From: Lingula anatina
Taxonomy: Eukaryota; Animalia; Brachiopoda
DNA: 64,000 nt
Direction of reading: 5' to 3'
Assembly (NCBI GenBank): GCA_051362555.1
Contig: CM120640.1
Coordinates: 37,157,967-37,221,966, forward strand
The notes beneath the pieces are model-generated. The model had not been told where the DNA came from. It worked only from the letters and a program-made list of their open reading frames with translations, and made no database searches. A program made the translations under genes and the position numbers. Shown here piece after piece: positions 24,015-55,225 of the stretch; position 1 is the first letter of the stretch, and each line of letters starts with the position of its first letter.

Positions 24015-24016
<2 letters not shown>

Positions 24017-24062: not shown

Positions 24063-24065
<3 letters not shown>

Positions 24066-27497: not shown

Positions 27498-28727
27498 TGT
27501 CTTCCCCAAAAACCAAATGCACAAATGTGTGCAATTTTTTCAGCTTTTTTGATTACCCAATGTACCGTTCAGGTGCAGCGATTTCATAAGTGCGTGACAC
27601 CAACAAAAAATCTGAGGAATTATAGAGAAAGCATATGGTGCCATAATACATGCTGCCGCAGGGTGTGGTCTTGCAAAAGAACGGCTGCTATTGATTCCAA
27701 AGATGTCTCTTCCTCGAACATTACATGCAAATTACTTTAGAAAATTATCACATCAGCTGTGGATGTGCCTGTTGCTGGTGTTAAAAATATAGTTGAAGGA
27801 AGAAATGATTTGAAAGCCGTTATCCAAAAATTCAGATGAAAATGTTCATTTATGACATATCTTTACAAATGACTTTCTGGCTGACCACTGTTTTCTGACA
27901 TGCCTTGTTATTTTGCTAGCATTTGAAACAGAGAGTAAATGGAATAGCTGTCGCATTTTTTGATAAATGGAAAATAAAAGCCATACATTTTTTATGGCAA
28001 CTTGTAAGGAATACTACTGTCACAGACATTGTCTTATAATTATATATATGCAAATGTGATGATCAGTAAAACCTGATGAACACTGGAACAGTAAAAAGAA
28101 GATTCAAGAACCCGATTATATTATAAGTTTCATATTTCCCAAGTTTGGAATAAAAGTGCTTTAAATGTATTCAATAGGATGTTACTGAGCATTGATATTC
28201 TAAATATAATAATTGCTTTTTAAGGTAGTGAAATTTTATTTCCTGTAATTGGCATCCTTTTGTTTCTGAATTCAGAGCAAATCCAACATAATCAGAGGCT
28301 TAACTTAAACAGACGTTAACAATATTTTGTTGCCATTTATTCCTTTTTTCAATTTTAGATGACCTATGCTTATGCATTGAAGACAGGCAACAAATTTTGA
28401 ATTATCGAATTAATGACCATCACTTTGTTTAACAAAGAAAAATTTGTTTAGCAAAGAATGCTTGATACCTTTCACTCAGCAATAAGCCAAGTGAAAAGAA
28501 CAGTGTTTCTAAAAACACAAGTTTTTTTTTTTACTTTAGAAAACACTACAGTGATGGTACACATGGTACACAAAGCAATGGCAAGTTGTTGAGGATGCCA
28601 GTAAATTTTTTTAATCTATTGTGTTTCTGCTGTATATTCTACAAAGACAAATACTGGCTTCACAAATGTCAGACATGATCAAAGTTTCATAGACATTTTC
28701 AGGTGGTATATTAAATTGTTTACTTTT

Positions 28728-31066
28728 TCACAAGCAAGAAAAAGTGAACTTGACGAAAACAGCAATCATTATCAAATAGTTTGTAAGCTGGACCTTGAAT
28801 GTGATGCCGTGATTAGAAAGCAAAGCTGTCACAGTTGTGGTACCTGGAATAATAAAGTACGCTGTACATGCTACAGTTTGACAGTTAAAGAGTGTTCTCA
28901 TTTTGAAAATGATAAAAAAAAGTCTTGAGTAAATGGTTCATGGTTCTGAAGAATAATGTTTATTGTATTATCCTAAAGAAAATATTTAGGACTTAACATT
29001 CTTGCTTCTTACCTGACAGTGTCTTATTTGTAGCTCGAATCTTTGATCCTTTCTTTTTCTTTGGTTCTGATTTGAGTATATTTGGTTCGGTGTTGTTCAT
29101 TTGAGCAGTTTTTCCCTTTTTATCTTTGAAGTTCTCCTGCAAATTTTCTTTTTTGGTTGTTCTCATTTGACTTGGCACTTTAAATTCTCTATCTGAAATT
29201 GCGCATAATCTTTAGATAACCATTTCTTATGGCCAGTTGATAATGGTATCAGTTAAATAAGAAAGTTTTGTTCTTTTATGATTATCCTTATCAGCTGGTT
29301 AAGACATCATATAATATAAAAGTTATATTTTAATTCTTGCAGCATTAATGATCATAATGCTTAGGTGGTCTTTACCTTCAGTTTTCACATATATTTTCTT
29401 TTTCACTGACTTGGGTTCAATGTGAGAAGTGGGACTGCATGTCACAGTGATCTTGGTGTCAGCTTGGCTGCCTGGAATTCACAAGATCACCAATGAGCCA
29501 AGGCCAATGTGTTCCCTTTATTGTGTAATGGTCCCATACAGTTTTGCAGTAAAGCAGGTTTCATCTTCTTTTCCTAGCAATTTTGTATATGACATGGCGG
29601 CACATGCCAAGTAAAGGGAGTTGAATGTATTTTTTTACCCTTACTCTTCATTAAATAAATGAAATGTTAATTTCTTAATGACTCCCCATCCTCTTAATGA
29701 TACTGGATTGCTTAAGTTTTTTTAGTTCAAATTTGATTTTAAATGAAATACTTGGTCTCCAAAATTATTCCGTCTCAATACTTCACCTTTCATATGCATC
29801 CAGAATCCTTTCAGTTCTTTAGTTTTGTCATTGGTGACTTTAATCCTCTTGACATCATTGGCATTGCTACTGAAATAAACATCGGTAAAGTGCTGCACTT
29901 CCACTTTTGCAGCACTTGGTAGCTGTTGGCTGCAGAACACTTCTTCTTTCGTTTGGTTCTGGACTAGCACCCAGTCTTTACACTCCTTGGAGGTGTCTTC
30001 CAGGGCCAGGTCAGCAAATGTCAAATACAGCATCCCTCCAACGGCCACTAGATGGCACTTGCAGTCAACACGAGCCTTGTAGGCAGATGGGTAGCTAGGA
30101 CTACTGATGTAACCCTCGTAACGGATTTGTTTCTTAGTGTTACAGATATCTAGAACATCTCCCACTGATAATTGAATATGATATATAATTCCATTATCAA
30201 AACCTGCATAAAAGTAGTTTACTCAGAACTTTCAATTTAATGATGTTACAGCAATTAATGAAATGCCTATGAAGTTAAACATGAAAATAAACCATGTGAA
30301 ATAAACCATTATTATCTATAATTTTTGTGTATTAAGCTGATCAATATGTGTATTGAGATTAACATATGTATCTTGAATAATGAAAAAATAAAAACTTAGG
30401 AAAAAGTGATGAAATTTGAAAATTTCAAAAAAATAAGGCAAAGAAAAAAGAAAGAAATATGAATGAAATAAACAATGATCATAAAGCTAAAAAGGGGTTT
30501 GTATTCATGCACCTGAAACACATTCATATTCCACCTGCAGGTACTGACTGTCTTTTTTACAGCTTTCAAGATAACTTTTCTTCACTGGTTGAACACAGTA
30601 CTGTAGTCCCATACACAGGGACCAGTCATATGCCTCTGCATTTTCTTCAGTGCAGTCATCTAACATGGCCGTACAAAGCCCAATGCTGCCTTTATGTGCG
30701 CCATGAAAAGCACGCTTGATGTTTATCATTAGCCCATAGCCACAATATAAGGAAACAAATGAGTTTCCTGTCCCATAGCATTGTCCAGTCACCTTTTCCA
30801 GTTCTAAAACCAGAAAATCGAAATGAATAACCTACTAGACAAATACCCATCATATTTTCCTCTTAGTAACAAATAATTGTTTCATTGGTGATTATCATAT
30901 CAACGTAAGATTTTTTTGTTCGTAGAGCAAGTACATAATGAGTCTCTGTCAAAAATATTTGAGAAAAGCAGTTAAGAATAACAGATGTGTCACAAAACTG
31001 CTTACCATCTTTTCCATCAACAAGAAGTACATGGAGAAAAAGCATCCATACACAAATAAACAACAT
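28728..31066 (-). CDS. Gene 5: SUEL-lectin + CUB protein with a Lys-rich stalk, probably GPI-anchored, ~373 aa, 6 coding exons
   Basis: Exons 31006-31066 (signal peptide MLFICVWMLFLHVLLVDG), 30513-30803 (SUEL-like, AFHG..YDWSLCMG..SQYLQVEYEC), 29787-30164 (CUB, GYISSPSYP..CKC..LKGFW), 29376-29471 (ITVTC), 29013-29192 (Lys-rich), 28728-28843 (...SNHGITFKVQLTNYLIMIAVFVKFTFSCL*). Confidence 0.85.
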
Positions 31067-32718
31067 TTTCTTCTTCTTGGGGAAGATTAGGTCCCAAATC
31101 AAATAAATTTGTGTTCCAGTGGTCCACTGTTAGCAGCTAAATCTTGGGTGTGGTCAAGGTCAAGAAAAAAGAGAAGCATTTTGTAATACTAATTATTCAC
31201 AATGTCATATAACAGCTGGGCAAATACATGTACAGTGAGCATCACATACTTTTGCTTCCTGTGTGTACAGTGTCATTTATGGCTTGTTTTGTTGCATTGG
31301 GTGGATAGATATATGCATCCTGCATTTTATTTCAATTTCTCAAAAGTATTTAGCGAAGTGTAAGGAAATTCCACTTTATTCCACTGGGTGATATTGCCTC
31401 TGGTATAGAAAAAATATCTTTGTAACATATTCCTTTGGTGGTCAATATAAACATCATCCAAAGCACTGTCCTGGAATGTTGTGAGTGATTGGTGTTAATT
31501 TTCATGTATCGGTTGGCAACAAATGAGAGAAAATGCCAATGAGCCAGGAATATGACCACCTTTGTATCAAAGTATATGCCAATTAAAAAATATGTATTAC
31601 AATTATTCTAAGTTAATCTGAAACATGATTTTAATTATAAACAAGGTGCAAAGATTTGGAAAATATTCATTTCTGTAGACTTTTTTAACCTAAACGTTTT
31701 TTATTAAGAAAGCCAAGCCAGGTATTCTCATACTGGTCTCTGCAGGAGGTGAAAAAAAATAGAAATCGTCATTTGGAAATATTATACGTTGATTGTTAAC
31801 ATTCAACTTGTAAGACAACACGCTATCAATGATACCTTTACCACCTAACCAAGAGGCTTAATATGGATATAAGAATATAATTATTTGGCGGCTTAATCGA
31901 CAATGCATTGAAATGTCAAAAATAACTCATTCAAAAATAATCAGATAAGGATTTACTAAAAATGTCATGTAAAAACAATATTAGACAATTGAGAGGTTTT
32001 GATGTCAGGGTTCATGAACATTAAAAATACCAAAATAATGAAATTATAAAACTGTTATTGTGAATATCAACAAGATTGACGTTAAATTGAAAAATATGTT
32101 TAAAAACATAGTTTGTTTTAAAATTAACAGTAATATATTTATTTCAATATAATTTATGGATTTTTATTTGATTTTGCGGTGAAATGTTTTTTATTGTCTT
32201 TCGTACAATGATGATAAAAATAAATCATTTCTACAAATGAGGCATGATATTTTGACCTTCCTGTTAAATCACATTAAAATCTCTTTAAAGATTATTTACT
32301 GCTTTATCAATATTTTAATATGGTGACACGTCACAGTGCTGATATAACCCCAATTTTTTTCAATATCAACTTAGGCAAATTCATTAAATGCTAGCAAGTA
32401 ATAATGGAATGATAATTCACATCAAAATGGTGTTTTTTATGTTACCCTCAATAACAACATAAAATAACAAACAACATGTTAAAAATCAACTTTTATTATA
32501 TGATCTGTTACATTTCATTTAGATATGCGTTTGCAAATACGAATTTAACTCAAGAGCTATAACTTTAAGAAAATGGAGGACAAGTACACATAATTACTGA
32601 TGCTGTTCGGAGGCATGTCTATAACTCGATATTTTGAGACAGGTTTTTTTCGAAGTGGCTCGGGTTCTATTTAAGTCATCTCAAGAAGCATGATGAATGT
32701 CTAAAACTTTTAAGTTCT

Positions 32719-35116
32719 TCACAACAGGGTTAGAAGCAGCAGCAGTACAGTTGACACTACAGAGGTGAAGGCCAGGTTCAGGCTTTTGAAATCCGCTGAG
32801 TTTACAGAGTTTCTTTTGGCAGTTGCTGAAATTGATAAAAATGAAAATGTAATATTTATACAAAGTATATAAATTCAGTTAAGATTTTTGAATGTATCTG
32901 TAGCACATATGAAAAGTGAGATGGAATGTTCCATCTGTTAATGGAACTTAAATTGTAAATGATATAAATATAATTTGAAAAGCTTATTGCAGCATGGTTT
33001 TATGAATACATGCTGAACTGTGTTGAATGTATAGATTTTCATTGAAAACTGTTTTGCCTGCAGTTGAATGACATCTTACATTTTGAGTCATTGGATTTGC
33101 CCTTATTTCTACAACTTCTTCCTCCATCTAGGCATGTAGTTTTGTGCCCTCTGGAATTGTTAGTAGCATGTGTGGTGGGTTGGGTGGATCTGCTGGTGGT
33201 TGGAGGGACGGTCACTTCCATAAGGCCAGGGTCATCTGGAGGAAGTCTACCACATGATATTTTCATGTTAGACGATACAACTGAAATGAAAATGTCAATG
33301 GGATTTTTTTTCTGTCTTTGATATATGGAATACGTTTCATAGTTTGTATGTAAACTTAAATGAAAAAATGGTTCTTTTTCATGTAATTATGTTGACTAAT
33401 AACCCTGCCTCCAATGGTTAATACAAGCATATTGATGGAAGTTAATTTTAAAATGTCAAAAAATCTATACTTTTCCTTACAAAAGGCACATGAAATGTAT
33501 TTGAAATATCTGCAATACATAGGTAATCAAAACCAGTATGCATACAGTGAAGAAGTTAAAATGGATAATTATGATTAATTTTTTCTTACCCTTAAAGTAG
33601 AGCCAAAATCCTTTGAGAGTCCTAGTAAAATACTGGAACATTTGTGTGCTGACATCATTGGAGTCAGTGTAGAAGTACACGTCCACCACTCTACCAGGAA
33701 CCGTCATTGTTGTGTTGAAAATCTGACCACAGTGTCTCATCTTCGTCTTTGAATTCTTGATGAGCAGCCAGTCCTGGCACTCCTTATCCTTGTTCTCCTC
33801 CAGCAAAAGTTCATATATTTGGAACTCCACCCCACTCTCTCCCCAAGAAGCTTCCAGGGAGCATTTGCATGCTTGAGACGGCTGGTAGTGGTTGGGGTAG
33901 TTTGGAGAACTGATGTACCCATCCCTGACCCATCTCTCTGGCTGGGAGCACACATCAAACACATTTGCCTCTGAAAAATAATTGCTTATAGTATAATGTT
34001 AGGTTGTTCATTTAAATGATTCTTGGAGAAAAGGGTTAAATGTAAATTTTTTATGCAGACTAGTGGCAGCTAGACCCTTTTTGAGTCGATCTTCCTAAAA
34101 GGTTGAAAACATTTGTGGCATAAAATATGTGATTTCATTTTTTCATAAATGCTGTTTCAGTCATGACATTAAATATTAATTGGCAGAAAATCCAGACATT
34201 TATTTATTTGAGTATAATATGTTTTATCCTGTATCTTTAATCTTGTATAAAAAATCTTTTGTTCAAGTGCAGGCACATGGTATCACAAATTTCATAACTT
34301 AAGTTTTCTAAATTGTAAACAAACAATATTTGAGGCATTTTTAACAATGTCTAATTATCTAGATAATCATTCACAGACAATATAAAAGTGACTTCTTACT
34401 TGGAATGCACACATACTCCAAGTAGAGATAATCGCTGTATTGCTTGGGACATTTTGGCATGTTGGTTTGCATGACATAGTGTGTGCAGTTGGACGTCCCC
34501 GTACATTTGGTCCAGTCATAGGCCATGGTCAGGGAGTCGTCAATGCAGTCCTCAGGGCAGTAGATGCACTTATTGTCCACCCCATCGGCTTTGTAACACT
34601 TGGAGCTGTCAAAAGACGCCCAGTGCCTGTTGGTCGCCTTGCCATGAAAGGCATTCTTCATCAGAATCATGGCTGTCCCTGGAGGCTGCTCACATGTCAT
34701 TGTAATCAGGGGCTGACCTGTCTTCACATTGAAACACTGACTTATCCATTTTGTATCTGAAATGAGGATGATGAAAGAGTTGGTCATTTATCAGTAAATT
34801 CAAGTCTTTTCTATTGTAATAACAATACACATGTAAAGTTGTGTCTCATGTTAAATTCTAAGGATAACAGAGTCCAGATATTATATGTTTGCTGCACATT
34901 ACTTTCTTGCAAACCTTTTCATACATTAAACATATGCCTTTACAATAAACAAAAAAGCAACTTTTTTAAAGTTAGAAAATTGAGATTATTTCAATTATTT
35001 CAAAAAATCTATAATAAATATATCACAATTTTCCTACCCTTTTTACCAACAGTTTTGCCCAAGGTAGAGAATGTCCCATACAGCAGTATACATTGAGTCA
35101 GAATTAAAAAGTTCAT
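32719..35116 (-). CDS. Gene 6: SUEL-lectin + CUB protein, probably GPI-anchored, ~371 aa, 5 coding exons
   Basis: Exons 35047-35116 (signal peptide MNFLILTQCILLYGTFSTLG), 34400-34756 (SUEL-like with Cys insert), 33590-33970 (CUB, GYISSPNYP..CKC..TRTLKGFW), 33080-33280 (MKISC + stalk), 32719-32825 (STAKRNSVNSADFKSLNLAFTSVVSTVLLLLLTLL*). Confidence 0.88.
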
Positions 35117-37779
35117 ACTCTAATTTGAAAACAAGAATAATGAAATAGGAGTATATTATAAAACTCCTATGGTTGTTGGCACATTTCCCTGCTCCTACAA
35201 TAGGTCTCCGAGTCAATGGAGTGGTATGTCTTCCTGGTAGTGTAGTGACACCATCTGTGGCTAATCGCAGTTTTAGGAAGACCAGGTCTAGCAATGGGCA
35301 GAACCCGCAGGCTTGTCCATGCTGCAAAATGTCAATATGCACATCTGGGTTTCCTCTCTCTCTAAGTCTGTTGCATATACACATATGATTAACTCAAGTT
35401 GTGTTTTTATAGGTTTTAACAGCAGTAATTTTTTAAGGTCAAGGTTCAGGATGTTTTTGATTGCAATACACCCAGATTAATAGTTCCTTGGTCCCTCCAA
35501 CTGTTCCTTGGGTTTACTCATAACTAGGAGATTACAGATGGATTATGCTATAATAGGCAATGAAAATCTAACACAATAACCATTTTTGTTTAATTCTTTT
35601 ATATTTTGACCTGGTCAGATCAAATGATGCATTTTAATCAACTTTCAGTCTATGTTACTATTGCGTGTGACCAGATCAAAAAGTTGCCCTCTGCATGCAA
35701 CAGTTGTTGTAATATTATGCTAAAACAGAGGTTGTACTGCACATTATGTTACTCGGTAATCAGTAATTTTTACATGACTTGTGTTGTCACTTTGCCAATT
35801 AAATGAGGAAGTAACTGAGTTGAGATTTAATTTGTATGTTTTTCTGCATCTGGAAGGAAATATGATTGATTTTAGAACCTTCTTGTTCTCTTTCGAACAA
35901 AATCTGCCCACTGACCTTGCATTTTTTTCTGCATGGTTATGTTGCCAAAATATTACTAATATAAAAATATATTTATTTTAAACTAATATTTTGACCTTCC
36001 ATTTATGAAATGTTGTCTTTCTTTTTCTTTTTCATGTTGTTGCCTTGGTACCTGACTACACCTATTGTGTTTGACATTTTCTGGTCTGATGAAATACCTT
36101 ACATTTACACACATAGGTAAGTGCTTTCCTCAATAGTTCATGTTTTATTAGTTGACCCCAAAATTGCTTCCCAAAGAGTCTCTAAAAATGTGGAACTTCA
36201 AATTTTGTATGTTTGCACTAAAATGATGCCTATCAATTAAAAAAGTATTCTTACAATGCCAGATTTGGAGTGTATTCTGAATAGGCCTGAATTTTTTTGG
36301 ACCTGGTTCAGAAGTAATAAACATAACTTTTATTCTAGTTGACAGTCAATATACAAATTCCCTATGATAAGTTTCAGATTTTTAGCATGTATATTCATTT
36401 GTCTTGACCAACATTTTCATAATTCTCATGTGTGTGCATGTGTGTGCATGCGTGTGTGTGTGTGTATGTGCATGTGGGAGAGAGATTGAGAGGGAGAAAT
36501 TGATTTATTGTTATCATGTTTCGAATTGTGAAACAGGTGTGCATACTGTCATTTATAATTATGTATTTTAATATGTATATCTTACTTATGAACAATGTTT
36601 TCTTAGACACTTTATTATGTTCCACAGAACATATTTTTTTGTTACATGTTGTTGTCGTTGTTAGATCATTTGTATATAATTTGATAAGTACTGACAGAAT
36701 GTTAATGCAATTTAAACAGTACAGATTCCCAAAAGTAATTTATAACTTGTACAGGACAACCATTACAAAATAAAGAAATGATGTTTTATCATATGAAATG
36801 CATTGCTGTTACCCACATTTGTTGGTTATTACAGATCTATTATAGTTTAAGTCTCTCTATTTGCATGGTTGGCATATTGGTTGATAATGAACATATCACA
36901 TTGATTGTCATTTTCTACACTGGGTGAAGAAATTATTTTTTCTCTTTATTTTTTTTTTCATATTTGTTGATATTTTTAACAACTTTATTTGTGGTTAAAG
37001 TAGATGATGTGCCTCATTATCTGTGAAGTCAGACTAGAAGAACAAATAAATGCAGTCAAAAAACTCAACAATAATCTACATTCTACATTTATTTTGCCTC
37101 ATGAGGCATTATAAGAAACTAAAATGTTGCAGCGGTACTGTTGCATCCCAGATTATGTATATAGTACAGTTTATCTCCCAAATATTGCATATGCCACCAA
37201 TGCATTTGAAAGAAATTTGAAAACACCTTTTAAGGGAAAATTATTTTCTTTGCCACTGTCCATGCCAATTATTTATTTATTTATATCATTGGTTTTGAAA
37301 TCATTCATGATAGGCTATGTTATGCCTAGTAATCGTGAACAAATTACTACAGATTCCTGAATACCTGAACATGTAGTTGTGCCCATATTGTATAGAGTAA
37401 AAATTGAGAAGTGTCAGTGTGATTCATATTTTCAACCAGTTATCATGAAGCAAATTTTAAGTAAAAAAATAACATTTATGACCAATCTTTCTATATTGTT
37501 TTTATTGTAATATAATTAGGCTTATTTACATTTAGGTGTCTCATATTGACAGGCTCATATTCACCACATAGATGGAGACAGTTACTTTTATTTGAATTAT
37601 GTTGTTGTTATATTGTCATTTTCACTAAATATCATTTCCATTTACACATGTATTTAATCCTTTTCATTTTTGTGTAAGGTGTTAGGTTTTTTCAACAAAT
37701 GAAAAAGAGATTCAAGAGTTCACACTATGTTATCATTTCTACAAAAAGCACAGATATACACATAAGGTCAAGTCTCTAG

Positions 37780-40131
37780 TTATTTCTCCAGATAATAAAT
37801 AAGAAAAAAAATTGTACACATGGAAACGATTGAACTGCCATGGAGTGGGGAGGCTGTGTTTGCAGCTTTTCTCTTGGAAGTTGCTGAAAGAAAAAAAGTA
37901 ATTGTTACTTATATCTCATTGCATTCTTTTTATTATGCTTTGAAAGAGAAAACGGTACACAGATAGTAGTAAGAATATTATAGAAATATTCATTAACATG
38001 AACGATAAACATTTTAAAGTTAGTTTAAACAGGCAATGAGAAAAAAACAGTAAATGCCATTTATTTAGATTTTAACAACACTAAGCTTTATGAACTAAGA
38101 TTATGTAAATTTGGTAAACAATAGATTAACATTTGCAGCACTTAAAAATTGGAATTATATCATATATATATAAACTTCTACCTTACCTTCATTTTCTTCA
38201 CTCTTAGGAACCGATTTCTTTTCTTGGTTGTCTTTGTGTCCAGGTTTTTCTGAACCATATGCAGTGTTATTGTTTCTGTCTTGTCTATTTTTTGCGACTT
38301 TTTCATCAGCCTGTGTGCTGTTACCCGGGCTTTCTGATGTCATTGGAGGAATGGTCATCTCCATTAGTGTAGGGTCATTTGTCTTGAGTTGACCGCAGCT
38401 GACTTTGATGTTAGACCCCACAACTGGAATAAAGAGTGTTGCAGGATTATAATGACTGCTGCAGATATTGGTGCAACGTGTGCTTTTAATGTGTGTATTT
38501 TTAAGAAAAAAAGGATATGTTGGTTCAGATGGGTTTTATTCAAACTTAATCACATATACCATAGTTGAAATGATTGCACTATGGCATACTTGCTGGCATT
38601 TCTAAAACAGTGATTCTGATAGACATAGAATTGCTTTTTTTCAGAGTGGATTTTGATGAAAAATGGGGAAAAAATGCCCCTTTAATCTATTTATTTATCC
38701 AACAATATGCTTAAGTCCAATGATACTGGATTACAACTATACGCACATCTGAAATGGAGCCAGAATCCTTTGAGTGTTCTGGTGAAATACTGGAATACTT
38801 GACTGCTGACATCGTTGGAGTCGGAGTAGAAATAAATCTCTGCCATACGACTGGGAACTCTGATTGTTGTATTAAAAATCTGGCCACATTTTCTCTCTTT
38901 CTCATCGCCATTCTTGACCATCATCCAGTCTGTGCACTCTCCATCTGCATCTCTCTCCAGTAGGAGTTCATATATTTCCAGTTCCACCCCGCTGTCCCCC
39001 CATGTTGCCTCTAGGGTGCATTTGCATGCATGTGATGGCCCATAGTGGTTGGGATAGTTTGGGGTGCGAATGTACCCTTCTGTAACCCATTTTTCATCAT
39101 TTGCACATATGTCGAACACTGATGTCCCTGAAAAGAAAAAACAAGGATTTTACTTTTTGTCTTGGGACTTTGGGAAATTTTTATTCGGTGTCCCTTTTAA
39201 ACATATATTACAACTGTTATGATGTTTTTTATTATTATTCATATCTTCTATTTTTCTTTTTTTTTTTTTTTTTCAGTTTCCTGTTTTAGTTCTCAATTTT
39301 TTTTTAGTTTTTAGTGTAGATTAGTACTGACTTTTATACAAAGATTTCTATAAGGAGTACACATTTAAAAATTAGTGCCATTAGAGGAAGTAAAACAATT
39401 TCTGTGTTGCACTCACTTGGTATGCACATGTACTCCAAATGGAGATAGTCGCTGTATGTATTTTGACAGTTTGGCATTGACGCCTGCATCACATAGGTGG
39501 TGCAGTTAACCATCCCCGTGCACTTGGTCCAGTCGTACGCCACCATGATGTCTTTGGACTCATCCGTGCAATCATCTGGGCAGTAGGTACACTTGATGTC
39601 ATCGCTGCCAGCCCTGTGACATTTGTCAAAGTTGTGGTTTGGCCATTTTCTTGGGGTAGTTTGTCCGTGGAATGCTCTCCTCATCAGGATCATCCCTGGC
39701 CCTCCCGGCTCGGCGCATGACATGGTCACCTGGGGTTTGCCCACTTTGAAGCACTGGCTGGCTCGCTTTAGCTCTTAAAAAAGATAAAAGAAGAAGTGAA
39801 AAAAGGAATGTTATAGGCATTCTTTTCAATGTTTTTTTTCTTTTCATGAAGTTAGTCTTATTTCTGTGTCTTATATTTCCTGTGAGATATTCAAGATAAA
39901 AGATTCTCTTTTTGGTTTATATTCTCAAGAGTATTCATCAATTTTTTATTTATAATAAGTCATGAATTGTCATGTAAAAATTTGGTTGCATTGATGGAAA
40001 ATATATTTGACACTCAATGTGCATATATACAAATTTACAAGGTGTAGATTGTACTTACCCAGTGCAAACCCCATTATTGGTGGCAAAAAATAGAAAAGCA
40101 GCACAGTTGAGACTCTGATGTCCATCTTCAT
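37780..40131 (-). CDS. Gene 7: SUEL-lectin + CUB protein, probably GPI-anchored, closest paralog of gene 6, ~383 aa, 5 coding exons
   Basis: Exons 40059-40131 (signal peptide MKMDIRVSTVLLFYFLPPIMGFAL), 39417-39773 (SUEL-like, 357 nt as in gene 6), 38747-39127 (CUB, 381 nt as in gene 6), 38187-38423 (IKVSC + stalk), 37780-37883 (ATSKRKAANTASPLHGSSIVSMCTIFFLIYYLEK*). Confidence 0.87.
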
Positions 40132-41144
40132 CTTTACATCAAACAATGCAGATAAGATCAGTGGAATCGCATGCATAAACCAAGTAAAAATATTGTTTGC
40201 ATTGACAGAGATACTCGTTTTTCAGGTAACCAATACAAGAATAGAAGGACTTGTGTCTTCTTCTATATTCAGACTGGTCTTTCTAGGGTGTGTCACATGT
40301 TACATATGTCGCAAGTCACAGATGTTGATAATTGCCAGCCACTTTTAACTTTAACCAGGTGACACACTTCGAAGGATGAAGCCATGGAGTGGTTCGGGTT
40401 GAAAATTAATTGTTTACAGGAACATGTTGAGTTTAAAATGACACAGCTGTTGAAGTAAACATTATTTTATTGTTTGTTTTTTTTTTTTACAAAAAAAGGA
40501 AAATTTCACAGTTGCAAATAGGCAGATTACAAACCACACTTCAGTGCACTTCAAACTGATCACAGCTACATGTGGGGTGTGCTTACATGTGATTTTTTAT
40601 ATTATTTCATTTATAATTTTCTTTGTAAGAAAAATTGAGAAACCAACTGCCACCTGCACTAAAATTGCCTGTGCACGACTCAATTATTTACAAACTGCTT
40701 CGACAAAAAGTGTATTATATTAATGTGAGGATAATGTGTGTAAAGGTATATACTGTAACAGTTAAAATTATTATACTCAAATCGGGGTTAAAAGTATGTG
40801 TTGCATATTTGAAATTACGATTTTTTTTATAACTTATTGGTAAGCAGTTACATGTACCATCTGTTTTTCAATATCGTATTCCTTTTTCTCAACAATTTTG
40901 GAATGTGCAAGTCTATATCACAGATTATGATTGCACTCTTTTTTTAGCCCAATATACATTAGAGCTCAGCAGTTAATACTGTTTCAGGTAGATGCCATTT
41001 TGCATGAAAGTAAGAGTTATTTACAAATATTTTGCTATCTGTGCTACATGTGCTAAGTTTTGAAATTGTATATAAATACTTGATTGGCACTTGATGAGAT
41101 TGTTCTTGGACAGTTATATTCAATAGTCTGTCAGAAAATGTGAT

Positions 41145-44100
41145 TTAGTCTGAGTTAGGATTAAGCCAGTCAAAGTCTGATTTGGGACTGTTTGATTTTT
41201 TCACTGATGGTCTTTTGTTTTGGAAAGCTCCTTCACTTCTTCTCCATTCCCCCTTCTCAAATATGGTATCCTCAAAGTGAACTTTCATAGCAGGAGGTGT
41301 AGAGGATTGTGGCACATCTGAAACGGACACTCGTCTGGGCTGGATTTGTACGTTTGGCATCTCAAGATCCTCGAGAAATGCCTGGTTGTTAAAAGCATGA
41401 AGAGCAACACTCTCATACTGGTTGCCCCTTTGGGGTTTCAGTTGCAGGGTTTCGTCATCTGCTTGGTATTTTCTTCTTTGTCCAGTCAGTTTGATTGGCA
41501 TGGACCTGCTGTCTGTATTCCCACTGGGACTCATGTCTTGGTCATCATTTGTGTCTGGGATATTGTCAAATTTCTCAAACCTCTGGCTCAACTGCTGCTG
41601 CCTACGAGTTTGTCTTTTTTCAATATGTCTGAAAAATAAGGGCTTTTTAGAACAGGTGTCTATATCTGTTACACTGTTACATTTATCATATTCTTATCAA
41701 TGCCTATTCTTTTATAACAAATACCCCCCCCCCCCCCCCCCGAGAAAAAAAATTAGGTTATAATCTTTAGCTACAAAGCATGTTTCCTATAATCCTATTA
41801 TTAATTTTTTTTGCAGTTCTTGTAATGAATGTTTGCATGGCTCATCCATCACATATGGTTTTGTGTGTGTTTGTTTATTTTACTGCTGTATATGGAAAAT
41901 ATTAGAAATATGCTTGTAAATTACCTTCTCCTAAAGTAGATAAGAGTAATAGCAAGGAAAAATATCACAACTGCACTGGCAAATGCAATGCCAATCAGCC
42001 AGCCTGAAAAAAACAGAAAAACCATATTTAGAGTCAACTTGAAAAGTGAGTCCATGTTGTTAAGATGTTTTCAGATGTCATTTTGTTTTATTCTTACTAA
42101 AATATACAAGCTAAATCAGTCATATATAAATACAGGAGTGAAATAAGAAAAATCGTTTGCTGGCTACAAATTTCATAAATTCTGCTTTAATTTAAATGCC
42201 ACATCTCTTTTGCAATGACTGGATTCAGAGGATAATTCAGGTACAAAGATGCAGATACAAAGATAAGTTATTGTTAACAAAACTGCAAAATTAAGTACTT
42301 ATCATAGCCATTGCCATACCTGCATTTTTGAAGGCCACTTCTTTTGGTGTTAATTTGTGTTCAGGTTGGTATGGAACAACCTTGGTTGCAGTAGTTGTGC
42401 TGCTGGGAGCAATTGTGCTAGACTCTGTCATTGATGTAGTGGTTTTATGGGAACATGTCAGGTTTATTGAAGATGGATCTAGAATGAAGAAATGCTCATT
42501 TTGTGGCATATTTATAATGGTATATAAATAGATAAGATATTTGAACGTGGTATTAAAACAGTAGTAAAATTGATTTCATGAGAATTGTAAATAATTTTTT
42601 TGTGTGTGTGAGCACACAAACAGTTTTCATATAACAGTTTTGGCATATGTTATTACACAACACATTCATTTGTGGGTATACTGAATTCAAAATTTTGTGT
42701 ATTTTAAAAATAAAGTAATTAGTCATTTACCTTGGATTTTTATCCAGAGTCTACCATATGGGTTAGAAATGGCGTTAGAAGAACTTTGGAAAGTTCTGTT
42801 TCCAAAAGGAATATTCCACGCTGGAGACGCACTGCATATGTCATAGGTGGCATTCCCTGAGTAGAGCTGAACGAGGCCTTGGCAATGACTTAGCAAAACA
42901 GTGATGTTGACACTTGCTGTGGATGTCAGATGACACTGACAGTTGCTGTTGTTGTTACTAATGGGGAATTGTTCACTGAACATGTAATCTGTTGGAGCTG
43001 TTGGTGAACAAAATGAGCTGGCAGTTTTGGCTGAAAGCAGTAAAATATGAGTAACAGTAGATGACAGCATTGTGTTAGATGAATGACGTTAAGGTGAAAA
43101 TTGCCATACAATATTCTGAGGACTTGCATTAAGGAACAAAAAAATGTATATTAATTTCTTGCTTTCATTGTATTTATTTATTTTGTTCAAGCAAAAGTAT
43201 ATGAAAAATGGGAATGGAGAGCAATGTCCTGACTATTATCTTTTTATTGAGATTAACAAAAATAATGTTATTTTATCACATGCCCATTGTTAATTAAAGG
43301 AAAACATGGGCATATGAAAGACTTCTTACCAGGTATGCATTCATAGCTTGCTGTAAGTGAGGTTTGAGGAGTGGTCTGGTTGATGTTGTACCCACAACTC
43401 TTGTTGGTCAACTGAAAGGTACAGTTGGTCAGTCCAGTACAGATGGACACCAGGTCGGACATAATGTGAGGACGGTCACATTGAGAAGAATCACACTGTG
43501 CTGTGGTGTAATTGTCTGCCTGATTGAGTAGTCTCACAGATTGAATGTGGATCCATGTGTCTTCCTCACATTGGAGGTGGACTGTATTTCCAGTGAGACA
43601 TGTCTCTGCTGCTGATTTAAGCTGGCTTATACCTATGAAAAACAGGTTTAACTAGATTAGATAAACTCTAAAAATGTATGTATTAAGTGACTTGATGTTG
43701 TATTCACCTCATCTAAAACATTAAAGGTGCTGCATAAGTAAAACTTGCTTATCTGAGGGTTGTTTTAATAGGTCATGAAACATAAGTAAAGTTCACATTT
43801 CTTTCAAAGCAAGTAAAAAAGTCGAATTCAAGGCAGGTGTTTCAAGAATAAAAGGATTTAAAATCATTAAGTTATCTGTTAGTTTAAAGTCCAACTTACA
43901 CTCAGTTGTCTAGCTGTATAAATGCACGTAATATTATACATTAAGGCTAACTTCTGCATTTTAGTTATAAATATCTCCTCATTTTAAATAGTTATCCCTA
44001 CACTAAAATAATAGCGACATTTTGCGCTTTCCTCATACTAAGCAATAAAAGTTATGACCAACCAAGTCAGTTGCAACAGTGAGTACAGGGTGTTCAGGAA

Positions 44101-45905: not shown

Positions 45906-48900
45906 CTATCTAAAGGCAGGGTTTTTATATCCCCTGATGTTTTGACTGCTGTTAATAGATCTTGGCCTGTTCATTGAATTACTGCTTTGTGTTCTGCTAG
46001 GGGGCCCTCCATTCCTTCCCTGGTTGTACTTGTATCTGCCCATAGGTTTTTCCTGTAGATGGTGTGATTTTCCAGGCAGTGGCATGGTATTACTGCCATG
46101 GTGTTGAATTGGGTTGGAGTAGTTGACTTTGTTACTGTTGCTGTAGGTACTTGAAACGCTGTCGCGCTGGCCTCTCTGAGCTGAGGCACGGAGACTGCGG
46201 TGGCGATCTCTCTGCTCTCTGTGATTTCTTTAAAAAGAGAAGAAATATACTGTATTCTACAACCTTGCTATTAATGTTTACATTACATCTGAGCCTAGCT
46301 GCCTTCTGTCATTGATTAATAAAAAATGACCTAGAAAAGACTTTACACAGAATCAGAGACAATCCAAGTTAATGAATTTGTGACAGTTTTTGAGAAACTA
46401 AACCCTGACTTATTAAAATATGGGCTCTAACTGATTTGACTGTAAAAATTGATTTTCAATTTCAAATTACACAAAAAGATGATGATTAAAAGATTAAATG
46501 TGTGTTATCTTCATATTATTTTCAAAAGAATATGTCCCGAATTTTGATGCCACGAAACATTAAAAACACTGTAAAAGATTCTGACAAATTTTATAATTTG
46601 TCAAGGTAAAAATAATCACTTTCATTTATTCTCAGAGAAATTAACTCACTTTGCTTTAAGGCAAATTCCCACTATAATCCCCACAATCAAGACCAGGACT
46701 GCCAGACCACCCAATACAATACCTGAAATGAATGTTTACATTCCAATTTAGGTTGTAGTAGTAGTAGTAGTAGAAGTGCTGATGATTAAATTTACTTAGA
46801 AGAACAGAAGCTTAATCTTGGCTATATAGAATACTAAGCATTTTAGGTACCAGTCATAAATTATAGATTACACATGCATTATCACACAATGAATCAAGGA
46901 GATTTGTAAAAGAAATTATTGACATTTGCAATTGAAAATGAGCAAATAAATGCGCTATGGTCCTTTTTTCTGTAGAATATTTAATATAGTAATATGTTAA
47001 CTGATGAATTTGAAAACATACCCATATTAATATTAGGATCTTCAATGAATGTAGCTTGGGTCGTTGTAGAGTGTTCTGATACGTTGATGGAAACCGCTTC
47101 GTTTATTTCATTTAGTATGATGCCGATTTCTACTGTGTTTGTTGGTTGCACATCTGTAGTTGTTCTTGGTGTTATCATGTCATCAGATTTGTACACGTTT
47201 GGTCTTTGGGAAGGAGAGACAGGATAGGGTGTAGAAGAAGCATCAAAAGTTCTCATTTTGGTGGTGGTGGTGCTAGGTGTAGTTAGTGTTGTGGATGAAG
47301 TGGTGGTAGTGGTGCGCCTTGTGGTGCTTCTTATGGTTGTGGTAGAAGTTGTAGTAGTAGTAGTGGTGGGAGGAGGAGTTGTAGTAAGTTTGACTGTTGT
47401 AGTACGAGTTGTAGTTGTTGTGGTGGCAGGAGTTGTAGTAGTAGTAGTAGTGGTAGTTGGAATTGTAGTTGTAGTTGGTGTTGTGGCTGAAGTTGTAGTT
47501 GTTGTTACTGGGATGCTTGAAGTACAGTTCACTGTCACAGGACCATTCCTGGCTGTAAATATAAAATAATATAAATATTAACCAGGATGTTCTTTACCAT
47601 GCAACATAGTATTTTGGATTACGTGTTAACATATCTTTTTATATTGGGTCACTGCGCACAAGGATTTCATATATTACATTAAATATATAGTTTATTATGA
47701 GCATAGAAAAAATTTTAGATGGAACAAACGAAAATTGGACAATATATTTTTATGATAAAAGCATTTGGTAATTTCCTTACCATTATAATGAAGCTAAAAT
47801 CTATGAATGGACAATTACATTTCTATGATAAAAGCAATCTGTAATTTTCTCACCTTTATAATGAAGCCAGAATCTCCCTGCATCCTTCTGAACAGTATTG
47901 ACAAAAGTGATGTTGACCTGTCCACCAGCAACTTCATACATCATGACATTACTTCTTTTGTCACAAGAATAAACACTGGTGGACCTGCTGTGGCTGTTTA
48001 CTATGAGTTGCTGCTGATGCTCACACCCTAACTCGTCGTACATGTGGAGCTCAATAGCCGATATGCTGACGCCATTGTTGGGCTCTGCGGTAATTGCACA
48101 TGTGCATTTGCGAAAGTCGTTGCCTAGTACAGACCGTGGGTAGTTTTCACTGAGAATGTGGCCATCGTCTAATATACGGTCTCCCTCCTCACACATAGTA
48201 TTTGTAATACTCACTGCAAGTATAACAATACAGAAATATAAGATTGTGTAGTGATGGCATCAGGCATTGATTAGATTATAAATATTTTTATGTTTCTTTT
48301 CTACCAAATCTAAATATAATAATGATGATGAGGAGGAGGAGGAGGAGAAGGAGGAGGAGGAGGATGGGAGCATTTATTAAATGATGAATTATTTATTGCA
48401 TGTTATGATGGACAAAAGGAGCAATTACTAAAATGATGAATTATTATTTCATTTTATCAACATTAATTAAACAATCTCCTAACAGAAGAAAAAAAGATAC
48501 AAGGCACACATTTCATCCAGGAATTTCTACTGACCTGGTATACATTCATAGGTGATGTTGACATAGTTGCTGGACAAAAATTGACTTCCGCACATGCCCT
48601 GGACCCTGTTCACAGGCACATTACACTCCCTGTTCCCGAGACAATCCCCAACCATGTTTCTGTACACCCCTGGGGTCCTGACAGCCAGGGGGACGGTGCA
48701 GTCTGTATCCCTGGGGCAGCACCTGTGGGGGCAGGAGAGGTCAGGGGCACGACCATAGATGGCGTCATGGATCCTTATGTGAGTGCCGACATCACAGAAA
48801 AGCGTGATGTGGCCAGGCAGCACGCCATGGCACATGGACACAGTTGTCTTCAATACTGAATTGAATGCAGACCAATGAAAGTATAAGAAGTATTGTTCTT

Positions 48901-51900
48901 GCATATTGGTTAATGTATTGTCTCAAGGCAGCATGATTAATTTTCACAATAAAAATACCTGTTGATATTATTTCTGATAAAAAGTTATAATGAAATCGAA
49001 CTGCCAAGCTTTGAATATTTTCATGCTCTGATCACACTTTAAATTTAAGCTAATATATGCGTCAGTCGCAAAGAAAAAAATGAGATGTATTGTTTAGCAA
49101 AGTATAAAATGGCATATTTGTTTGGTTTCCTGATGAAGAAAATTAATTTGTAATACATACCTTTGACACATTCATAGACTACATGCATGTAGTTGCTATA
49201 GCCTCCACCAAATGCACACTTGACTCCCCACATTGGTCCCTGCTCAACCAACACAACACAGTGACTCTGACCTGAGCACTGCTCAACCAACTGCTCATAG
49301 GATTCTGGTCGGCTCTTTTCCACATGAACTTGACAGTCCGATTCTTTTGGACAACAGATGTCACCACAGCTGCTTCCGTAACTTCTCCCATAAAATGCAC
49401 TGATAATCCTGATAAAAGTTTTCGGCTCTGGGCAGCTCAGTTCCATGTGTGGAGGAATTTTTCCAAAGCATCTTCCCTGAAGTTGGTAATTAGGGTTGGT
49501 TGCCAGAACCTTGTAGGAAGTCAAGAAGTCATCTTGCCCTGTAGTATCGCCCCCTCCATATTGTCGTCTACGGCTGGTGTCAGAAGCTGTGTCTGTTGGG
49601 CGTGGGGTATTGTTTTCATCTGGATTTCTATATCTGTAGGGCTGTGTGACCTTTTGTGTAGTAGGTATGGTTGTTGCTCCAGGTTTTGGGGTGGTGACTC
49701 CCACTGGTTCAGTGCAGTTCAGTGTGACATTTCCAGAAGAGGCTGGAAGTGTTAGCAACACAAAATGATCATTTGTCAAACGTATTATTATTTTTATGTG
49801 TAGACTGTGCCTTAATTTATGTGTACCTTTGTGTGAATGTGCGTGTGTGTACCTATGTGACTTTAAGCATTCAAAAGGTAGTTACCTAATATGAGGTTTT
49901 ATATTATTTCGGTGCATTTGTATTTTCCCTTACCTGTGTACTCTAACCAGAATTGACCGACATTTCCAAGTAAAGTGTTCAGGAAAGTCACATTGACTTG
50001 ATTGCGTGTGGAGTTGTACATCCAGAAATCTACTCTGTGTTCACATGAGAAGCTGCTAGAGGGCTTTCTTTGCTCTTCAAATGTCAGCGTTTGCAGGTCT
50101 TGACACCGCGTGCCATTGTAAGGACTAAAGTCAATGGCGCGGACAGCTATGGTGGCAGCAGGTGGGGCAGTGAGAACACATTTACATTGGCGGAGGTTAT
50201 TCCCTGGGATCTTTGTAGGGTACTTCTCACTCATGATGTAGCCTTGATCTAGCATGTTGTCTTCTTTGGTGCAGAAGTCGTTAACAATACTCACTAGATT
50301 ATAAAGAAAACCAAATGAATGATTGAGGATGTGTGAATTTTTTTTCTTTTTTATTAAGATTAACTCGAAAAAGGTATCAAGTTGAGAGAAATTGTTTTAA
50401 TGGGAAATTGGAAATAGAAAGAAGTTCTGATGTGGGGAATGTATTATTTTTGGCTGAATATTGAAAAATCATTTGATAGATTAACTTCACATAACCTGAG
50501 GCTGCTATTTAGTTGTGCAGGGTCATGTAAAAGAACTTATTTATACACGAAATTTGCAATTGTTTTTCTTTTAATTATGGATAATGCAGTGGTTATCTTT
50601 TAAAAAAAACCTATAATCTAGATGACCACACTAAATTTCAAGCAGTGACATTAATTTTATTAATATTGTACTGAATGGCATAGATAAGCCTTTTCACAGT
50701 TTCAGTTGGTACCAATATGGTCATGACTTACCTGGGACACACTGGTAGGTGATGTTCATGTAGTTACTGTTGTAGAACTCGCTTCCACAGGTCCCGTGCA
50801 GCCGTTCCACAGGTATACTACACTGTGTTCTACCCAAACACTGACCCAGTATGGCAGTATACAGGCCAGGATTTCTGGTGCGCACTTTCTCTGCACAGTC
50901 ATCCTCTCGAGGACAACAGCGGCGAGGGCACGGTTTGTAGTCGCTTCTTCCAAATATGGCATCTCTAATATGGATGTAGGTACCAATGTCGCAGAACAGG
51001 TTCATCTCTGGAGGATACTCACCATAGCACTTAGAGATGGTTGTGACCTTGGCTGTAAGAAGTTAATTAAAGTTAAAGAAGTGAGGGTTTATAACATTTT
51101 AGTTAATGAGATGTTTTTGCGATTGTTAACATTTGCAATGATTTTAAATAAGAAATCTATTAGTGTAATAGAACTATTAATTTACTTCTTGTGCCAGATT
51201 ATCCCATATTTTCCTACTTATTTAAAATCGTGTACAGTTCTTTGTTTAAAGTTATATTCTTCACAGAACCTTTGACACATTGGTAAGCAACCATAAGATA
51301 ATTGCTGTATTTCCCTCTGCCACACTCTGCAGTCCATAGTTCCCCTTGCTCTACCAATACAATACAGTGCGTCTGACCAGAACACTGGTCAACTATCTGT
51401 TTATAGGACTCGGGACGGCTAGCATTCACATGGACTTGGCAGTCATTATTGCTGGGGCAACAGATGTCATTGCATCGGTCATTTGTGTTCAGTCCATACA
51501 CTGCAGCTTGAATCTTAATAAAAGTTTTTGGTTCTGAACATGTGAGTTCCATGTGCGGTGGACTCTTTCCAAAACAGCGAGATTGGTACCTCCAGGGTTC
51601 TTCCTGGCTTTGGTCACCAGTGTCGCCACCTTTTGTGTTGGGATCCGGTACTATAAGGATAGATCTGATGCTGGAGCCAGGGTCAACTTTCACCATAGGC
51701 TGTGTCACTGGTGGGGTGAGGGTGGTTGTGGTGGTAATGGAGATTGCAGAGGTGCAGTTGACTATCACAGTCCCCCAGGATGCTGAAAATTTAACCAATG
51801 AGGAGTCTTGTTACCTCAGAATCACCAATGTCACTATGTTTAAAGATTGCATCTTTGGTCGACACATCTACCGGTAGATAGCAGCTTACAAAACAAAGTG

Positions 51901-54900
51901 TAGAAATTGAAAATGACATTCAAGGCACCCTGTGAAAAAATTTTAAGCATTTTCCACAGAATTAATCCAATAAAATATCTATTTATCTTACCACTGTATT
52001 CTAGCCAAAATTTCCCTTCATTGCTAAACAAGGTGTTCACAAATTTTATATTCAATTCATTTGCTAGTCCTGTGAAGAATATTTTTTTGCATTTTCCACA
52101 GAATTTATCCAATAAAATATCCATTTATTTTTCTTACCACTGTATTCTAGCCAAAATTTCCCTTCATTGCTAAACAAGGTGTTCACAAATTTCATATTCA
52201 GTTCATTTGCTGGCCCATTGTACAGTATGGTATCTGTGATGTGTTGACAGCTGTAGGCTGCTTGGTCAGTTTTTGTAAACATGGCTAACTCTTGATGCTC
52301 TCTGCAGCCTGGTCCACTGTACATATTGATGTCAACAGCACGTATGGTGATTGAACTGTTCTTGGCTGTGGAGAGTCGGCACTCACAGGAACGTAGGTTG
52401 TTTCCTGGCACTTCTGCAGGGTAGCCCTCACTTTGGATGTAGCCCACATCAATGGCATTGTTCCCCTCCATGCATACTTCATTGACAATGCTAACTAGAA
52501 AAAATGAATGATGGGTTCTTGACCATTGGTTGACAATAGGAAAATGTTAACAGAATTGTTGAAGTTTGTAGCATATAGCTATTTGGGAATATGAGAGGAA
52601 GGGAAAGTCCCTCTTTGTGTAATTTGGACCCGAGATGGAAATTAGGATAGAAATATACTGTAAAAAAGTCATAATGCTTGAAAACTTAACAATTAAGGTA
52701 CAATTTACCATGGATATTGTTTTAGTATCTGCAAAAGAGCTAGACTGAGTGTATAAATTGGTATTCTTGGCAATGACCAACAGATAAATTTGATTATTAT
52801 TACCTGGTACACACTCATAAGTCACATTTACATAGGTGCTGACATGAAACTGATTTCCACACATCCCAGAAATCTTGTCCACTGGAATGGTGCACTCTGC
52901 CCTGCCCAGACATTGACCCAAGATGGCCGTATAAAGAGGAGGGGTCTTTTCCAGAAGCTTCTCTACACAGTCGGTCTCGGCAGGACAGCAACGCCTTGCG
53001 CAGGGTGTGCGATTGCTACGGCCATAGACGGCATCTTTGATGTTGATAAAAGTCCCCTTCTCACAATAAAGATGCATCGTGCCAGATGGTTCTCCATAGC
53101 AGTTGGATTGGGTTGTTATTTCAGCTGTTGTAGGAAAGTAGTGGAATATGACAAGTTTGACTACTGTTTCAGCAAGGAGATATGGCTAAGATTAACAACT
53201 TCTACTTAACATGATTATTGATTGTGCAAATGCAGTGAGAAATGTTCACTTTATGAAATCATTTTGATTTTATTTTTTTTCAAGATGGGATCAGATACAT
53301 GAAGTTTTACATACCTTTCACACACTCATATTTGACTTGTAAGTAGTTACTGTACTTTCCCCTGCCACAGGGAGCTGACCAAAGAGACGCTTGCTCTACC
53401 AACACTATGCACTCTTGTTGGCCAGAGCACTGACCAAAGATTTGGTTGTGGGTCTCTGGACGACTCATATTTACTGGGACCTGTTGAGAAAAAAATCAGC
53501 TTTATTTTCATCTTTGCAAAGCTTTAATTCTTAAAAAAAATTAATTAGCATGTTGACTCTTTGTGTTAGTTCAAATGCAAAATATTGCGTATCTAATGTC
53601 ATTTAGAAATTCAACTAAAGCAATAGAAAAAACCATTGATTTCCACTTTTTTAATTAGATCAAAATTGAGACAAAATAAAAACGGAAAATTCCAACAAAT
53701 AGGGCATTATGTACATTATAATATTTTAGAATAGATATATTATCTTTTATAAGATATAATGATGTCACATACATGTACTATATGTGCATATCCCATTTCC
53801 CAAAGGCACTACATTTTCCGGTCTTGTTCAAGTTCAAGCTATTCTAACTGTTAAGTTAACAGGTCTTAAAGGCAATGATATATTACAATTCCTTAATTAC
53901 CTGGCAGTCGTTGACTTGGGGACAGCACAGGTCCCCACATGCTGTGTCACTGCTGAGACCGTATACGGCAGAGATGACGCGCATGAAATGTTTGGGATCC
54001 GTGCACTCCAGCTTCATGTGGGGTGGAACAATGCCAAAACACCGTGATCTGGTTATCACTTTGATGTTAGACGCATGCTGGTGTTGACCTTGAAAAAAAG
54101 TTATCATCTAATTAAATACTTTGTTTTTTTCTTTTTGGGATACCTTTTAATAAATTTAAAGGAGATTGATGATGGTGCTTCATTATATAAGGCCTTTTTT
54201 TAAATGGATCATGCCAGTGCAAAGCCCTTGGCTGTTTGCATGAAACTTGACAATAAAGCTCCTCTATTTTTTTTTTATTAGTTTATACTGCACTCACTGG
54301 CATATCTAAAAATGCATTATAGGTTTCTCTTTAAAGATAACTGATAAAGTGGTATTTCATGATACTTAAATCTGGTCTGCTTTTGGCACATGAGTAATTA
54401 CTATTTGAGTGTTATTGTGTATGCAGTTTTAACAGATACCTGGTTTGGGTAATTATGCCCTTTTAGAGCAGAGAACTATATTGTATTTCAGCATAATTAC
54501 CTGGTGTAAATTAGATAACAATCTTTGTCTGAGTAACTTTGTACAGGTAGACTAACTTATACATGTATATGTAGAACAGGAGTGATGCTGTGTTGGATAA
54601 GTAGGTATCTTGTACGTGTAGATGTGTGTAGTAACATACAGACAGAATCTGATTTTTTCAGATGCATTTTTTTCAGTAATAATTTATCTTATTTGATAGT
54701 CAGTGTTCATTATATATTTCAACTGTTTTCAGTGTTTTTGGTCATGTTGTTGAGAGTGCTGGAACTACTTGTCATAGAAAACTGTACCCTGTAAGAGTTT
54801 TGAAAAGAATTAAATACATTTCACAAAATGATACTAATATACTGCTATTCATATTGAGTTATATGTTTACAGTGCATTCTTTGCTGAGATGGCAGAAGCT

Positions 54901-55225
54901 ATTTGTTAATGACTTTGGTCATGAAACAAGGTTGGCTAATCGCTTTGACTGTGGTCTTTCTCTAATGTGTTAATGGTACAAAATTGGCTCAAATTTTCTC
55001 TTTTTATGTTTGAAAACTTCTCATTGTGTAACACAAAATTGTGCTTATACAAGAATTCTTGAGCCACGTTTGTACTGACAAAAAAGTTCCATTTTGAATA
55101 GTTTCTTTGACTGAGCTTCTTTCATGATCTATCTTATAGACATACAACTTTAAAAAGAAAAAATATTCAGACTTACCATGAACAACAACAAATGTGAAAA
55201 ACCCCATAAACCACAGCAATAGCAT
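45906..55225 (-). CDS. Gene 9: large type I membrane protein, (SUEL-SUEL-CUB)x3 + mucin stalk + TM + tail, ~1487 aa, 14 coding exons
   Basis: Exons 55177-55225 (signal peptide), 53901-54088 + 53315-53480 (SUEL-A1), 52804-53124 (SUEL-B1), 52138-52494 (CUB1), 51270-51782 (linker + SUEL-A2), 50732-51052 (SUEL-B2), 49934-50293 (CUB2), 49161-49742 (linker + SUEL-A3), 48535-48855 (SUEL-B3), 47854-48213 (CUB3), 47022-47552 (poly-Thr stalk), 46650-46722 (TM GIVLGGLAVLVLIVGIIVGICL-KAK), 45906-46227 (tail ending GYKNPAFR*). All three SUEL-B exons are 321 nt and the frame is kept throughout. Confidence 0.88.
48328..48363. repeat. (GAG)n trinucleotide repeat, intronic
   Basis: gaggaggag... run following gatgatgat in a gene 9 intron. 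Confidence 0.8.
51929..52215. repeat. Tandem duplication (~146-bp offset) of the CUB1 exon 3' end, its donor site and intron start
   Basis: cttaccactgtattctagccaaaatttcccttcattgctaaacaaggtgttcacaaattt occurs at both ~51987 and ~52133. The flanking intronic gcattttccacagaat..atccaataaaatatc is also duplicated. Confidence 0.92.

Follow-up and report, generated by a model that had tools for sequence, protein, structure and literature searches.

The stretch of DNA analysed here (the window, 64,000 nucleotides of the brachiopod Lingula anatina) contains a gene with 14 exons, designated gene 9, on the minus strand from 55225 to 45906. The exon model has canonical AG/GT sites and one open frame of 1,487 amino acids, and encodes a predicted signal peptide, three successive SUEL-A/SUEL-B/CUB units, a Thr-rich stalk, one membrane helix and a tail of 106 amino acids. 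Between exon 3 and exon 13, every intron is in phase 1. An earlier interpretation of the letters alone (the sequence-only reading) had placed the gene at 47022..55225, which holds exons 1-12 and leaves out exons 13-14 (46722-45906). The features of the locus are as follows.

3280..43632, minus strand: eight tandem neighbours, each with one SUEL or SUEL-like and one CUB or CUB-like domain (predicted models)
55177..55225, minus strand: exon 1, start codon and predicted signal peptide (exon model, 9-read joint to exon 2)
53901..54088, minus strand: exon 2, first half of SUEL-A1 (exon model, 7-read joint)
53315..53480, minus strand: exon 3, second half of SUEL-A1 (Pfam SUEL E 1.4e-5, joints)
52804..53124, minus strand: exon 4, SUEL-B1, 321 nt (Pfam E 2.1e-7, joints)
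52138..52494, minus strand: exon 5, CUB1 with CxC, 357 nt (Pfam E 0.0048, fold match)
51270..51782, minus strand: exon 6, putative extra CUB strand with Cys, short Thr/Pro linker and SUEL-A2, fused (8-read unit 1-2 joint, Pfam E 3.1e-7, homology to exon 12 start, predicted strand)
50732..51052, minus strand: exon 7, SUEL-B2, 321 nt (Pfam E 1.2e-6, joints)
49934..50293, minus strand: exon 8, CUB2, 360 nt (Pfam E 0.012, own profile)
49161..49742, minus strand: exon 9, putative extra CUB strand, linker and SUEL-A3, fused (Pfam E 3.4e-8, 7 loose-end reads)
48535..48855, minus strand: exon 10, SUEL-B3, 321 nt (Pfam E 7.8e-6, joints)
47854..48213, minus strand: exon 11, CUB3, 360 nt (Pfam E 0.00048, joints)
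47022..47552, minus strand: exon 12, putative extra CUB strand and long Thr-rich mucin-like stalk (joints, 19 and 22 reads)
46650..46722, minus strand: exon 13, only predicted transmembrane helix (hydropathy peak 3.1)
45906..46227, minus strand: exon 14, cytoplasmic tail with YKNPAF-R before the stop (18-read joint, motif test)

The gene 9 protein corresponds to the RefSeq entry XP_013401280.1 of L. anatina ('uncharacterized'), with 1474/1486 residues identical. Pfam detected six SUEL (PF02140) stretches in this entry. When searched exon by exon, the SUELs scored E 3.4e-8 to 1.4e-5, with exon 2 by itself giving no SUEL match, and the CUBs E 0.0005-0.012, under the curated cut-off; on the whole protein the CUB match reached 34.6 bits against a cut-off of 21.4. 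The only hydropathy peak above 1.8 was that in exon 13.

Among the eight neighbours, a stalk exon was found in most and membrane exons in four, and three correspond to HMMER hits described below (P0025, P0034 and P0081). Pfam left the SUEL unscored in three of them and the CUB in one. Their SUELs are 20-58% identical to each other; genes 6 and 7 have a common Cys-rich SUEL insert, and gene 8 is highly divergent. Read depth is low from 37000 to 44000, where no joints were listed. On the other side of gene 9, positions 58075-59007 hold the last part of a further membrane-protein gene on the minus strand, with a charged tail and a hydrophobic stretch near 58900; no SUEL or CUB motif was seen upstream of it within the window.

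Transcript support for a single gene

Raw RNA reads from four runs showed 12 of the 13 introns of gene 9 as read joints, with 7-22 reads each; ten of these joints were listed in another read comparison as well. Run X4 contributed 0 reads and hence no test. The junction between units 1 and 2 is a spliced joint in 8 reads. Intron 8, at the junction between units 2 and 3, is absent from the listed joints; 7 reads, all of the single run X7, break off at 49745. The loose letters of these reads fit the window best at 49937, where exon 8 ends (26/30, versus 21/30 for the second-best position). Both unit junctions are spliced, and gene 9 is a single gene as followed joint by joint in short reads. The offset of the exon 1-2 joint fits a 3-nt allelic insertion. 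Reads from three runs were mostly 90-99% identical to the window, which indicates that the same gene structure is present in a diverged population. Of the read variants tested, 41/51 were synonymous (25/30 in the ectodomain), these 51 sites being the best-supported rows among 127 and 256 found. Two other signals in the reads were discarded: loose poly-T ends at 50338 (run X2), considered as a short isoform, coincide with a genomic T run and are a probable artefact, and joints to 46754-46774 arise from a GTA repeat in intron 12.

If gene 9 were a prediction or assembly artefact uniting separate genes, the gap at intron 8 among the listed joints would be expected, and so would a second RefSeq model, XP_013419491.2, which has 816 amino acids (808/815 identical to gene 9) and terminates within linker 2. 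This explanation is nevertheless extremely improbable, given the 8 reads across the first unit junction and the 7 loose-end reads at the second, which come from a diverged population, and the lack of any internal signal or membrane segment in gene 9. The units are also just 36-63% identical, hence no collapsed or doubled repeat. XP_013419491.2 lies on another scaffold and its final five residues resemble run-on into a splice donor; its end may reflect an allele, a secreted form or an assembly break.

Repeat units and their order of duplication

Within gene 9, pairwise identity is 56-63% among the A-type SUELs, 49-57% among the B-types, 36-43% among the CUBs and 34-38% between A and B, while domains of the neighbouring genes reached 16-35% in the same comparison. 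In a quick tree of 69 domains (112 columns), the A-types and the B-types each formed a clade (SH-aLRT 98 and 92). A and B grouped together against the neighbour domains in the identity comparison and not in this wider tree. Together with the spliced junctions, the two clades bear out the proposal of the sequence-only reading that one gene carries a triplicated SUEL-A/SUEL-B/CUB cassette. The matching exon sizes it pointed out were likewise recovered (321 nt for all three B exons; 357, 360 and 360 nt for the CUBs), as was the fusion of linker and SUEL-A into one exon in repeats 2 and 3 (513 and 582 nt). SUEL-A1 is split by a phase-0 intron (53481-53900) that the other five SUELs and seven neighbours lack, and whose gain probably postdates the first duplication. 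An apparent SUEL intron of neighbour 2 lies at a different position (about 13110-13815).

The CUB assignment was examined by structure. The available AlphaFold model is that of the 816-aa form (mean pLDDT 63.5), of which SUEL-B1 and CUB1 alone are well modelled (81-97 in ten-residue blocks). In this model, CUB1 matched the second CUB of MASP-2 with Z 13.7 and rmsd 2.2 over 112 residues, and CUB2 and CUB3 were assigned by homology to CUB1; the gene 9 CUB is a beta-sandwich with four conserved Cys. Neuropilin, NETO and Kremen also have this fold on a single-pass protein (Z 11-13), but with other partner domains and 14-18% identity, so that only the fold is in common.

The fold match of CUB1 ends at residue 364-365, and a further Cys-bearing strand, which comes from the next exon, is predicted at 367-373. 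Extra Cys are present in the gene 9 CUBs as a CxC motif, and all three combine the CxC with a Cys-bearing strand of the next exon. This combination was defined in the present analysis, not in the literature, from 34 CUBs (48 minus 2 duplicates, 6 single-exon fragments and 6 cut short, 14 in all). Cys occurred within the next 22 residues in 23/23 CUBs with CxC and in 5/11 CUBs without it; thus, 23 had both features, none had CxC alone, 5 had the downstream Cys alone and 6 had neither (Fisher p 0.0003, overstated as the rows are related). Each CUB appears to take a completing strand from the exon that follows it, and we infer from the paired Cys that a disulfide ties this strand to the CUB. Such a bond would explain the position of the join inside the stalk exon (see below).

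Several other observations were made at the CUB exons. The Asp shortly after the third Cys, kept by most neighbour CUBs, is absent from those of gene 9 (47855-52492), which suggests that the calcium site has been lost. Local duplications are present at two of the three CUB donors of gene 9 (73 and 146 bp). At 51920-52228, the end of the CUB1 exon and its donor are repeated in tandem as a 146-bp copy, whose upstream acceptor would allow an in-frame mini-exon of 78 nt (52069-51992, 74/78 identical); no joints to this candidate were listed in the RNA runs. The other duplication, 73 bp at 47743-47876, repeats the donor and end of the CUB3 exon in decayed form (47/57 identical) and contains a stop.

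As to the origin of the units, the opening part of both linkers is homologous to the beginning of exon 12, the terminal stalk exon (shuffle p 0.002 and 0.0005), so the remnant stalk described from the sequence holds for the 5' part of the linkers. Neither linker showed traces of a signal, membrane or tail exon (p 0.15-0.91). Past the first 20 residues, the likeness between linker 1 and linker 2 is not significant (p 0.16), and a single origin of the fused exon is thus no more than tentative. The closest pairs, in amino acids as well as third codon positions, are A2/A3, B1/B2 and C1/C2. These pairs are out of register with the units, as expected if the last event copied exons 4-6 rather than an A-B-CUB unit. 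In 5,000 resamples with four alternatives, the out-of-register block order came out best in 87% when all positions were used and in 86% with third positions, which are near saturation; this hypothesis was framed after the pairwise identities had been seen. In-register pairings won 7%, 2% and 0.1%. AU tests rejected no duplication order (p 0.34-0.45), and intron comparison between units gave 2/78 pairs at p<0.03, which is the chance level.

In the sequence-only reading, the gene was considered a head-to-tail fusion of whole-gene units. This was not supported, as the linkers lack signal, membrane and tail remnants and the closest pairs are out of register. A version of this idea, in which three complete cluster genes arose head to tail by duplication and then merged through loss of their membrane, tail and signal exons, would suit the one-strand tandem array in which gene 9 sits, the stalk-exon sequence at the linker starts and the AU tests, which do not reject in-register orders. 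We nevertheless regard it as unlikely: besides the missing remnants and the small share of resamples taken by in-register pairings, the same fused exon would have to form twice.

Judging from the domain sequences, we favour duplication of an exon block [SUEL-B, CUB, linker+SUEL-A] as the last step, whereas the first may have copied either part of the gene or all of it, with a deletion afterwards in the latter case. According to this exon-block scheme, the ancestor would be a SUEL-A/SUEL-B/CUB/stalk/TM gene within the tandem cluster. In its first duplication, the copies would have joined within the stalk exon, immediately past the strand and Cys that apparently complete the CUB, and this join would have created a single fused exon of linker and SUEL-A. 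The phase-1 block would have been duplicated later, giving three units.

Relationship to SUEL-CUB membrane proteins and EVA-1

The HMMER search returned 89 hits, many of which are SUEL-CUB-TM proteins, including the top hits. Named SUEL-CUB-TM proteins were found in Lingula, Owenia, Haliotis, Crassostrea, Saccostrea and Ruditapes (20 hits looked up). The combination of six SUELs with three CUBs had not been recognised in the sequence-only reading, and indeed no other case occurred among the 89 hits, where SUEL-SUEL-CUB was confined to the Lingula gene. With regard to repeat number in relatives, which that reading had proposed to compare, SUEL-SUEL-CUB units were thus seen only in Lingula, and multiplied SUEL-CUB was predicted four times over in Potamilus (P0003) and twice in Owenia (P0005), both with no membrane helix by the cut-off used; these may be real multiplications or fused gene models. 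Word-based searches gave 1 match for exon 9, 0/2,296 candidates for the ectodomain and 2/4,484 for the alignment, and are insensitive and weak evidence of absence. The ESM Atlas provided leads only, at 0.80 or less.

Like the lophotrochozoan SUEL-CUB-stalk-TM proteins, gene 9 has a SUEL directly followed by a CUB, mostly with CxC and downstream Cys, then a stalk and a single membrane helix; both lack the sugar-binding Glu, and tandem clustering is seen in the window. They differ in that those proteins have one SUEL and one CUB, whereas each of the three units of gene 9 holds two SUEL types. Gene 9 is a derived member of the tandem cluster, and the family is also found in molluscs and annelids. 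In the literature searched, judged mainly from search listings, there was no description of a SUEL-CUB membrane family, and this SUEL-CUB-TM receptor family is apparently undescribed.

A link to EVA-1/EVA1C (C21orf63) had been suggested from the tandem SUEL pair on a membrane protein. EVA-1/EVA1C proteins have exactly two RBL domains, a stalk and a single TM, an arrangement different from the six SUELs and three CUBs of gene 9. It would be conceivable that gene 9 is an EVA-1/EVA1C-type Slit co-receptor that gained CUBs, since tandem SUEL/RBL domains on a single-pass (type I) protein and degenerate sugar sites are common to both (PMC2430599), and 12 two-SUEL membrane proteins were among the HMMER hits. 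However, the 24 domains of these 12 hits, labelled EVA here by their architecture, formed a clade of their own, N and C domains together (SH-aLRT 96), that excludes A and B. Moreover, these proteins lack a CUB and the top hits were SUEL-CUB proteins, so that we consider an EVA-1 origin very unlikely. The closest kin of gene 9 are the SUEL-CUB membrane proteins, the eight neighbours included.

Sugar-binding residues and possible function

The six SUELs of gene 9 have the SUEL fold with its eight invariant Cys, and their best fold and profile matches were the rhamnose lectins SUL-I and CSL3 (structures 5h4s and 2zx0). The residues that directly follow the first Cys are F, Y, F, Y, F and H, with no Glu in any of the six domains; DPC and the loop-2 Lys (KYL) are absent from all six, with Asn or Thr instead, and YGR/FGR is retained in four. 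Glu after the first Cys was also found in 0/37 family SUELs, scored by pattern with several truncated or mis-picked (none has Glu by eye), versus 28/96 in SUEL-only hits. Rhamnose-binding lectins (SUL-I, CSL3, SUEL) share tandem copies of the eight-Cys fold with gene 9, but are secreted and keep Glu, YGR, DPC and Lys, whereas gene 9 is predicted to be membrane-bound and has CUBs. Latrophilin (ADGRL) is a seven-helix GPCR with olfactomedin and GAIN domains, none of which occurs in gene 9; what is alike is a SUEL-fold domain on a receptor. In a study of latrophilin-1, sugar binding required the loop-2 Lys and the Glu that follows the first Cys, E42D/Q or K120R nearly or fully abolished rhamnose binding, and the authors argued that receptor RBL domains, including that of latrophilin, take non-carbohydrate ligands (PMC2430599). 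The DPC and YGR motifs of rhamnose-binding lectins are described in PMC3269628.

The lack of key sugar-binding residues suggests that the SUELs of gene 9 bind protein rather than sugar, while glycan binding at another surface may still occur. An alternative is that gene 9 is a multivalent carbohydrate receptor for immunity or feeding, whose six SUELs bind microbial glycans with an avidity boosted by the triplication. Its best matches are indeed rhamnose lectins, YGR/FGR is kept in most domains, and a bivalve SUEL lectin agglutinates bacteria, according to PMC8878817, which also calls the role of SUEL lectins in lophotrochozoans elusive. It is hard to reconcile with the absence of Glu, Lys and DPC from every domain, with the lack of Glu throughout the family SUELs and with the loss of latrophilin-1 binding on equivalent changes (PMC2430599), and appears improbable to us.

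Our preferred reading, held with moderate confidence, is that gene 9 is one spliced gene of three SUEL-SUEL-CUB units, probably produced by two internal exon duplications, and encodes a predicted single-pass surface protein. This protein would not be a sugar lectin but probably a receptor or co-receptor that takes a protein ligand in multivalent fashion. Its units, carried on the Thr-rich stalk, would engage a protein partner with avidity. The tail, short and non-catalytic, would recruit a PTB-type or endocytic adaptor via its terminal YxNPxF motif. No catalytic domain was found in the tail by Pfam. The [FY]xNPx[FY] motif at the C-terminus (YKNPAF) arises in 0.4% of shuffles, and we take it to fit the NPxY/F adaptor or endocytosis motif of LDLR/APP type. 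The strict motif was present in 1/22 family tails and a looser form in 6/24 (1.9 expected).

The architecture is new, as (SUEL-SUEL-CUB)x3-TM was not found outside Lingula, and the mechanism is ordinary. Extracellular exons in phase 1 are commonly duplicated within a gene, and gene 9 alone is thus of modest interest. A wider proposal, which we put forward tentatively and consider rather unlikely, is that the SUEL-CUB-TM cluster represents a hitherto undescribed set of receptors, spread across lophotrochozoans and diversified for the recognition of proteins, that would serve as a code for cell identity, gametes or self/non-self. Its members would combine a de-sugared SUEL with a CUB locked by a strand of the following exon, gene 9 being the multivalent one, and unit multiplication would have recurred in brachiopods, bivalves and annelids. 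Gene 9 offers an entry to a widespread and apparently undescribed family of orphan receptors with tandem clusters in brachiopods, molluscs and annelids, and a clear case in which a domain split between exons may dictate where duplications can join. If the cluster is a true recognition code, it would represent a new receptor system for lophotrochozoan immunity or development.
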